From NCBI RefSeq assembly GCF_003334405.1, contig NZ_QOWM01000007.1: a DNA stretch of 64,000 bases. One strand, 5' to 3'. This DNA is from Escherichia coli (GTDB taxonomy: Bacteria > Pseudomonadota > Gammaproteobacteria > Enterobacterales > Enterobacteriaceae). A program made the translations under genes and the position numbers. Positions within the stretch are counted from its first letter, which is position 1, and each line of letters opens with the position of its first letter. Below are positions 21,948-22,389 of this stretch, piece after piece. The notes below the pieces were generated by a model, which ran no database searches, was not told the DNA's origin, and was given only the letters and a program-made list of their open reading frames with translations.

Positions 21948-22294
21948 AATAAATAGCTGACTTATGGATGTGCTGGGGATTCTATGTATTTAGCACCGGG
22001 TTTGCCATTACTTTTCCTTTTTTTGACTTAATTAGCCTCTGTTTGAGCTGATCTGCCGCTAGATCTTCATTTTTTTTGTATTTTTATGCGATTCATTGAA
22101 TTTCAGCCAGGATTGCAGCTTTACATCGACAATATCTGGATTCTCGAGTATGCAAAATTTTATCTCTATGATTTTTATAATTAAAACATATTTTGTGTAT
22201 AAAAATCATTCGGGTCGGATTGCTGCGAAAGAAATGATACACTAGCGCGTCAAAGTAAGTGCGTTATCAGTATTCGGGTAGCTGTTGAGCCTGG

Positions 22295-22306
22295 GGCGGT
22301 AGCGTG
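22295..22306 (+). promoter_or_regulatory. ops element GGCGGTAGCGTG within a JUMPstart-like sequence in the waaQ leader (RfaH recruitment site)
   Basis: Exact 12-nt ops consensus read at 22295..22306, about 60 bp upstream of the waaQ ORF; the known RirA leader RNA of K-12 maps to this type of region. Confidence 0.8.
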
Positions 22307-22389
22307 CTTTTTTCTGCTTAACTTAACCAGACAATCACACAAAAGAGTCGCTAGTGGAAAAGCCATTTCGAAAAATCCTGGTCATAAAG

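Follow-up and report, generated by a model that had tools for sequence, protein, structure and literature searches.

A JUMPstart and ops leader upstream of waaQ in an Escherichia coli strain with a non-K-12 waa cluster

Operons that depend on RfaH, such as rfb, hly, kps and tra, are long, have a poor ribosome-binding site and carry a 12-nt ops element, with TG at positions 11–12, on the non-template strand of an untranslated leader. In vitro, RNA polymerase pauses at C9 and U11 of ops (Zuber et al., 2018, PMC5995543). The pause at ops, a class II backtracking pause, conforms to the consensus pause and requires no hairpin, and RfaH recognises ops as non-template DNA in the paused complex (PMC5995543). 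The ops sequence forms the 3' end of the JUMPstart element (Rfam RF01707; Hobbs and Reeves, 1994; Weinberg et al., 2010), which sits in a 5' untranslated region (UTR) and for which Weinberg et al. (2010) reported a conserved stem-loop. Here we describe the JUMPstart and ops leader of waaQ, the first gene of the lipopolysaccharide (LPS) core operon, in a 64,000-nt stretch of E. coli DNA (contig NZ_QOWM01000007.1 of RefSeq assembly GCF_003334405.1; hereafter the window).

The closest described system is the waaQ leader of E. coli K-12. There, RirA is a 73-nt RNA in the waaQ 5' UTR that contains JUMPstart and ops (PMC6358824, PMC5736990, PMC8745692). According to the same sources, which are reviews from the discoverers of RirA, RirA and the waaQ mRNA have a common 5' end, and hence a common start, and over-expressed RirA mimics an rfaH deletion. 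Reviews also state, for K-12, that RirA binds RfaH together with RNA polymerase and antagonises RfaH (PMC6358824, PMC5736990, PMC8745692), and that the waaQ operon depends on RfaH (PMC6358824, PMC8745692). Thus, JUMPstart and ops upstream of waaQ, RfaH dependence and RirA are already known, both from the literature and from the annotation of MG1655. For the window, positions 22235–22353 are very probably the promoter and 5' leader of the waaQ LPS-core operon, forming a standard RfaH checkpoint that works like the near-identical leader of K-12.

The JUMPstart and ops elements upstream of waaQ

The element is housed in the intergenic region between the divergent genes waaA and waaQ. A preliminary description of this DNA had reported an exact ops 12-mer in a JUMPstart-like context, about 60 bp before the waaQ open reading frame (ORF) and followed by a T-rich run. 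We found all of these features. The ops sequence GGCGGTAGCGTG is an exact match at 22295–22306 on the + strand, and is the sole match within the 64-kb window with one mismatch allowed. This is the strand of waaQ and the non-template strand, so that the consensus GGCGGTAGnnTG is satisfied in the direction of transcription. The element starts 59 nt, and ends 47 nt, before the waaQ GTG codon at 22354; the quoted 60 bp was a fair figure. With the transcription start placed by homology at 22250 (see below), ops lies in the transcribed leader, 45 nt downstream of the start. The DNA that follows is CTTTTTTCTGC; thus, G22306 and C22307 precede TTTTTT (22308–22313) and CTGC (22314–22317). From the literature, the role of ops would be that of RfaH loading site and consensus pause signal.

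The surrounding DNA is a full-length match to RF01707 at 22268–22306 on the + strand (53.1 bits, E = 2e-10, model positions 1–38 of 38). The score is above the gathering score of 35 bits, and JUMPstart is the only Rfam family to reach threshold anywhere in the 64 kb. The match sits in the 5' UTR of a polysaccharide cluster, between the homology-derived start and waaQ, and ends 47 nt before the gene. The Rfam match and the waaA/waaQ synteny support assignment of the element to the waaQ leader. Within it, the Rfam structure line, minimum free energy (MFE) folds and RNAalifold all place a hairpin at 22274–22294 (+ strand), in which UCGGGU and GCCUGG flank a 9-nt loop region. The core strands CGGGU and GCCUG pair with one G.U. 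The 3' base of the hairpin is 11–12 nt upstream of the U11 pause position. Thus, the window shares with described JUMPstart elements the full-length match, the stem-loop, the ops sequence at the 3' end and the location in a 5' UTR. With RfaH-dependent ops operons it shares the 12-nt ops with TG at positions 11–12, the non-template strand, the untranslated leader and a long operon with a poor ribosome-binding site. It differs in that its operon is chromosomal and encodes core-LPS functions, not horizontally acquired virulence or transfer genes.

We scanned one genome per species with the pattern GGTAGC, 8–14 nt, GGGGCGGTAGCGT. This returned at least 120 loci, nearly all in Enterobacterales. Among the matches listed, at least 23 were directly upstream of a WaaQ homologue identified by tblastn. 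The spacing between the hairpin and U11 was fixed in all JUMPstart elements seen. The variable pair of the hairpin covaried over 117 elements (U-A in 84, A-U in 18, G.U in 7, G-C in 3, and mismatched in 5), which agrees with the conserved stem-loop of Weinberg et al. (2010).

Other matches from the scan fell outside this pattern. Three loci in Enterobacter and Mangrovibacter (L031, L053 and L057) represent a second class of JUMPstart leader that is not upstream of waaQ. These have a short loop (GGTAGCCTAAGCC or GGTAGCGTAAGCC) and a T-run directly after ops (GCCTTTTTTACACAC). Exact matches were also present on short, low-coverage contigs labelled Arthrobacter (L029, L030, L092 and L096), Erysipelotrichia and Chryseobacterium; loci L047, L050 and L097 were grouped with these non-Enterobacterales matches. 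The Arthrobacter-, Erysipelotrichia- and Chryseobacterium-labelled matches are probably enterobacterial contamination or mis-binning. Matches in metagenome-assembled genomes of Lentisphaeria, Rhodospirillales and Polyangia have no hairpin context and look like chance.

In MG1655, the non-coding RNA gene rirA (b4760) occupies 3808166–3808238 of the minus strand, between waaQ and waaA, and is 73 nt long. The 5' part of the waaQ leader of the window, 22250–22322 on the + strand, is identical to b4760 at 72 of 73 bases, without gaps. The sole difference is G22276, an A in K-12; its effect is to replace an A-U pair in the JUMPstart hairpin with G.U. Over 22230–22353 there are two substitutions, G22247 and G22276, both A in K-12, and 22277–22400 is identical. 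Position, strand, −10 element, start, JUMPstart, ops, U-run and the weak Shine-Dalgarno/GTG start are the same in both strains. Conversely, the two strains differ upstream of about 22190 and in the operon that follows the leader.

The leader is conserved throughout E. coli. A search with the 124 nt from 22230 to 22353 found the leader, as a single copy, in 5425 of 5426 complete genomes of E. coli. The identity was at least 99% in 493 genomes, about 98.4% in 461 (the K-12 type) and about 87% in 4469. When the window, K-12, R3 (O157:H7) and R1 (REL606) were aligned, the DNA from the −10 element to the T-run was invariant except at 22276 and at a few positions in the 5' part; JUMPstart and ops themselves varied only at 22276. 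The leader was found in all core types examined. By its score, its stem-loop and its location the element is a JUMPstart; by its sequence, its strand and where it lies relative to the homology-derived start, an ops leader; and by identity at 72 of 73 bases, an orthologue of RirA.

Transcription start, pausing and translation start

Alignment with the 5' end of MG1655 rirA (3808238) places the start of the waaQ mRNA, and of RirA, at 22250 on the + strand. The conserved element had been put forward as an anchor for mapping the start of the operon. Conservation says little about this core type in particular, given that 5425 of 5426 genomes, and every core type examined, carry the leader. With the start placed by homology at 22250, it need not be mapped afresh. 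Immediately upstream is a probable extended −10 element, TGaTACACT, at 22235–22243 on the + strand, ending 7 nt upstream of 22250. Its −10 hexamer is TACACT (22238–22243) and its TG is at 22235–22236. Comparison of 17 waaQ leaders, drawn from about 10 genera, shows no variation in ACACTA and very little in TGnTACACT.

For K-12, the supplements of Adams et al. (2021, PMC7815308) give a curated 3' end for the minus-strand leader of MG1655, obtained by Term-seq. It maps to 3808184 in LB at an optical density (OD) of 0.4 (62,669 reads), and to 3808183 in LB at OD 2.0 (116,952 reads) and in M63 (75,075 reads). We converted these coordinates by setting MG1655 3808238 equal to window 22250; the printed flanking sequences agree. 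The ends fall at 22304–22305 (+ strand), the G10/U11 positions of ops, where pausing is expected. They define a species of 55–56 nt, found in all three growth conditions, that stops 17–18 nt upstream of the annotated end of RirA. This abundant end is Rho-independent: its Rho score is 1.04, and it falls outside Rho termination regions (PMC7815308). Although paused and released RNA look alike in Term-seq, and the reads come from K-12 and not from the strain of the window, coincidence of the in vivo 3' end with the ops pause position supports function of the identical window sequence. The text of PMC7815308 makes no mention of RfaH, ops or pausing, and the coincidence appears to be undiscussed there. 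In literature searches, we found no main text that treats RirA or waaQ in connection with Term-seq; our source of the data was the PMC7815308 supplements.

The abundant K-12 RNA could be a paused nascent transcript, a released species of 55–56 nt or a longer RirA that has been trimmed. A leader small RNA had been predicted for the window by analogy with K-12. The counterpart is present, since 72 of 73 bases are identical to MG1655 rirA, but its size is less settled given that the Term-seq end lies 17–18 nt upstream.

The waaQ translation start differs between annotations. The Prokaryotic Genome Annotation Pipeline (PGAP) uses GTG at 22354 (356 amino acids), whereas the MG1655 record uses an ATG 12 codons downstream, at window position 22390 (344 amino acids). 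The 12 codons from the GTG (MEKPFRKILVIK) are conserved across genera with variation of the synonymous type, and tblastn matches of WaaQ in other genera begin at residue 1. A weak Shine-Dalgarno-like sequence, AAGAG, is found at 22343–22347 on the + strand, 6 nt before the GTG, and both AAGAG and GTG are invariant across genera. On these sequence comparisons, the GTG at 22354 is the better supported waaQ start.

The following scheme is read across from orthology, the K-12 data and the literature. Transcription would begin at about 22250 from the extended −10 promoter. RNA polymerase would transcribe JUMPstart and pause at ops with the RNA 3' end at G10/U11 (22304/22305), where the exposed non-template bases of ops would recruit RfaH. 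RfaH would then remain on the polymerase, exclude NusG and Rho-dependent termination, and aid ribosome recruitment at the weak AAGAG (22343–22347) and GTG (22354). In this way, the ten-gene operon of about 10 kb would be expressed. The first 55–73 nt of the leader would also accumulate as a short RNA, known as RirA in K-12.

Three results weigh against this checkpoint model. First, we found no recognisable −35 element upstream of the extended −10. The candidates were rejected: TTGCTG at 22220–22225 is just 12 nt from the −10, and hexamers at a spacing of 17–18 nt match at 2 of 6 positions. Second, a simple σ70 scan of 21800–22500, requiring both hexamers, called no promoter in the leader; such a two-hexamer scan is uninformative for an extended −10 promoter. 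Third, no curated Term-seq end is listed at 380816x or 380817x, although RirA is annotated to end at 3808166, equivalent to window 22322. Nothing in the sequence contradicts the RfaH checkpoint.

Other features were apparent upstream of the promoter. The block at 22205–22234, TCATTCGGGTCGGATTGCTGCGAAAGAA, is conserved among E. coli core types. Within it, TCGG at 22215–22218, about −35 with respect to the start, is invariant in about 10 genera and is unlike a σ70 −35 element. The block may be a regulator site or an unusual promoter element. A 19-nt inverted repeat (22168–22186 and 22191–22209) has 84% complementarity and a 4-nt spacer, and its outer 12 nt are perfect (ATGATTTTTATA and TATAAAAATCAT). 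The repeat is centred at −61.5 relative to the predicted start at 22250, a position typical of a dimeric activator site. Its left half, with TGATTT, is widely conserved; the right half is not conserved outside Escherichia. In E. coli MLI104K2 (locus L127), which is otherwise identical to the window, the waaA–waaQ intergenic region has a 574-bp insertion flanked by a 10-bp duplication. The insertion point corresponds to window 22107–22116, about 135 nt upstream of the waaQ start. The insertion carries a 636-nt hypothetical ORF, and leaves ops and the leader intact.

The extended leader hairpin and the nature of the short RNA

MFE and centroid folds, and RNAalifold, place the JUMPstart hairpin at the top of an extended leader hairpin spanning 22257–22309 on the + strand. 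The 5' arm, 22257–22268, pairs with 22298–22309, which comprises ops positions 4–12 followed by CUU; 22270–71 pairs with 22296–97. The U-run, TTTTTT in the DNA at 22308–22313 (+ strand), is directly after the hairpin. In an alignment of 17 leaders, 94.1% of cells were paired, compared with 31–56% when the partners were slid by 1–3 columns; the ops side was fixed by the search pattern, so that most pairs were free to vary on one side only, and the sequences are related, with few independent events. Three pairs change on both sides, and there are several changes from U.G to C-G and from G.U to A-U. The same extended helix was predicted independently by RNAalifold. Single-sequence fold z-scores were weak (−0.7 to −2.6) and we relied on the comparative analysis instead.

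The complete architecture of −10 element, 5' arm, JUMPstart, ops and T-run is common to one group of waaQ leaders, from Escherichia coli, E. albertii, Intestinirhabdus, several Citrobacter, Silvania, Pluralibacter, Shimwellia, Cedecea and Enterobacter sp. Ag1. A survey of MFE folds showed ops paired to an upstream arm, combined with a run of at least 4 T, in 15 of the 16 distinct core leaders of waaQ, in 1 of the 7 remaining waaQ leaders, and in 4 of 95 JUMPstart elements from other operons. In Citrobacter youngae/Cu233, Kosakonia, Pectobacterium, Serratia and Symbiopectobacterium, JUMPstart and ops are present upstream of waaQ but the 5' arm is missing, or the U-run, or both. This confines the extended hairpin to one clade and means that it is no general requirement. 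Thus, compared with most other JUMPstart leaders, those of Escherichia, Citrobacter and Cedecea waaQ have an additional ops-pairing 5' arm and a U-run, and this terminator-like architecture is a clade-limited speciality of waaQ leaders, not a general JUMPstart property.

The short leader RNA need not be a dedicated trans-acting small RNA. It could be nascent RNA held at the ops pause, or a stable decay remnant whose end is at the hairpin, with the RirA phenotype reflecting titration of RfaH, upon over-expression, by additional transcription units that contain ops. We consider this a distinct possibility, though short of an even chance. The K-12 3' end matches the ops pause positions G10/U11 to the nucleotide, and the predicted fold of the 56-nt species is a hairpin whose 3' end is flush. 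All RirA phenotypes quoted in reviews come from over-expression (PMC6358824, PMC5736990, PMC8745692). Furthermore, RfaH recognises ops as non-template DNA in the paused complex (PMC5995543) and so a plasmid-borne ops transcription unit could titrate RfaH with no part played by the free RNA. Conversely, read counts of 62,669 to 116,952 rival those of strong terminators in the same tables, which is much for nascent RNA alone. The 5' arm and hairpin are also conserved beyond what pausing needs.

Alternatively, the extended hairpin and U-run could be an intrinsic terminator that acts as an attenuator. RNA polymerase free of RfaH would stop a few nt downstream and release RirA, and RfaH-modified polymerase would read through. 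This would refine the checkpoint model and not replace it. The hairpin has a predicted free energy of −20.7 to −21.8 kcal/mol with U6 directly after it; for a 67-nt version, z = −2.6. The 17 leaders, of about 10 genera, retain the helix (94% of cells paired, with two-sided changes in 3 pairs), and hairpin plus T-run separates core waaQ leaders (15 of 16) from other-operon JUMPstart elements (4 of 95). In K-12 the site scores 6.28 as an intrinsic terminator, values of 3.0 and above being suggestive, along with the Rho score of 1.04 (Adams et al., 2021, PMC7815308). The annotated end of RirA, 22322, is 13 nt past the stem.

Against attenuation, the K-12 Term-seq ends at 22304/22305 are inside the 3' arm, 3–4 nt before the U-run, and none is curated at 22314–22322. 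An intrinsic terminator would have 3' ends in or just after the U-tract; in the K-12 Term-seq data the ends lie elsewhere. The likeness to intrinsic-terminator attenuators thus consists of the extended hairpin followed by U6, and differs in that the K-12 3' ends are outside the U-run. A simple terminator scan of 21800–22500 was negative in the leader, which the length and interruptions of the structure and its weak basal pairs (A-U, A-U, G-C, U.G and G.U) explain; a scan of this type is uninformative for such a hairpin. Fold z-scores for the 73-nt RNA were modest (−1.6 for the window, −2.3 for K-12 and −0.7 for R3), and the pair 22264–22302 was mismatched in 10 of 17 sequences. The paired fraction also carries the bias noted above, with the ops side fixed by the pattern and few independent events among related sequences. 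On this evidence, attenuation is rather unlikely.

A further elaboration of the RfaH checkpoint, which we offer tentatively and think doubtful, is that the leader RNA acts in cis by way of two nested hairpins that form at different times. The JUMPstart hairpin, which has 5–6 bp and ends 11–12 nt behind U11, could prolong the ops pause in the manner of a his-type pause hairpin; such a role would be family-wide, because the spacing between hairpin and U11 is fixed in all elements. A spacing of 11–12 nt is also that of the his pause hairpin. The likeness to a his-type, hairpin-stabilised pause is one of spacing only, and is only a lead because ops pausing is described as hairpin-independent (PMC5995543). 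In the Escherichia–Citrobacter–Cedecea clade, the 5' arm would pair with the ops RNA once polymerase moves on, giving a terminator-like hairpin before the U-run. Polymerases free of RfaH would abort at the U-run and shed RirA-type RNA, closing a feedback loop on RfaH. If so, the K-12 3' end at U11 of ops would be an in vivo trace of the checkpoint.

The 8-mer GGCGGTAG occurs 7 times in the window, compared with 1.2 times in shuffles. This is not an enrichment, because the Gly-Gly hexamer GGCGGT is abundant; from its 88 copies, 5.5 occurrences of the 8-mer are expected, near to the 7 observed. We rejected the six other copies as additional ops sites, since they are in coding sequence and only 8–10 positions match the 12-mer. 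That the ops 12-mer is itself a functionless chance match in an intergenic region, as short motifs can arise randomly, has next to no probability and is already refuted by sequence conservation and model score: chance would supply 0.01 exact 12-mers per window (one turned up in 1 of 100 dinucleotide shuffles), the full-length JUMPstart match has E = 2e-10, the abundance of GGCGGT accounts for the extra 8-mers, and the same position, strand and sequence recur both in other genera and in 5425 of the 5426 genomes of E. coli.

Gene context, core type and significance

The gene divergent from waaQ, waaA, is an ORF of 425 amino acids at 20670–21947 on the − strand. Its name comes from the PGAP annotation of strain ET625, the closest genome found, which is 99.96% identical to the window over 25.7 kb and in which waaA and rfaQ/waaQ are called. 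On the + strand, waaQ (rfaQ) at 22354–23424 has a GTG start and encodes 356 amino acids; the ORF list and the PGAP annotation of the identical gene in ET625 agree. It is the first of ten genes, at 22354–32432 on the + strand, identified from the ORFs and the annotation of the ET625 stretch. The order is waaQ, waaG, waaP, a GT8-family gene, waaB, waaO, rfaJ (waaR), waaY (rfaY), waaZ and an N-acetylglucosamine (GlcNAc)-transferase gene that is waaK-like. From knowledge of K-12, we infer that the ten genes are a single operon controlled by the leader. Downstream of the GlcNAc-transferase gene is a convergent waaL-waaC-waaF-hldD cluster.

The gene content is that of a non-K-12 waa cluster, as the preliminary description had proposed. 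Compared with K-12, the GT8-family gene takes the place of waaS, the GlcNAc-transferase gene takes the place of waaU, and waaL differs. Of the five E. coli core types, it is presumably R2 that the cluster resembles by gene content. The GT8-family gene at 25368–26348 on the + strand (326 amino acids; named from the identical strain) occupies the position of waaS in K-12, and its product has no detectable similarity to K-12 WaaS by BLASTP (best E = 1.8). About 1.1 kb of the window, 25245–26361, is without a K-12 counterpart.

The gap between waaO and rfaJ, 28461–28623, is 163 nt compared with 39 nt in K-12. The extra stretch of about 120 nt, 28476–28595, is single-copy and confined to genomes with the core type of the window (484 genomes at a coverage of 80% or more). 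Within it is a long-range inverted repeat, TCGAGTTGCA ... TGCAACTTGA, and the stretch has no Rfam match. ET625 also has an insertion sequence (IS) of the ISKox3 family, with an ISL3-like transposase, between dinD and yicC (L001, 5561–6876). The window is without this IS, and the equivalent site is at about 12776–12783. Apart from the IS, ET625 and the window are 99.96–100% identical over 31 kb.

In non-K-12 genomes, PGAP lists no feature under this leader. Four annotations can be transferred directly: rirA at 22250–22322, JUMPstart at 22268–22306, ops at 22295–22306 and the start at 22250. This transfer to a non-K-12 core type is the main value of the analysis, since the mechanism is textbook RfaH biology. 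For those who study RfaH, two points may be of use: a conserved hairpin, one arm of which is the ops RNA, with a U-run after it, and a dominant in vivo 3' end of the K-12 leader at U11 of ops, not at the annotated end of RirA. The element would govern the whole outer-core LPS operon and, as such, is relevant to serum resistance, phage receptors and envelope stress.

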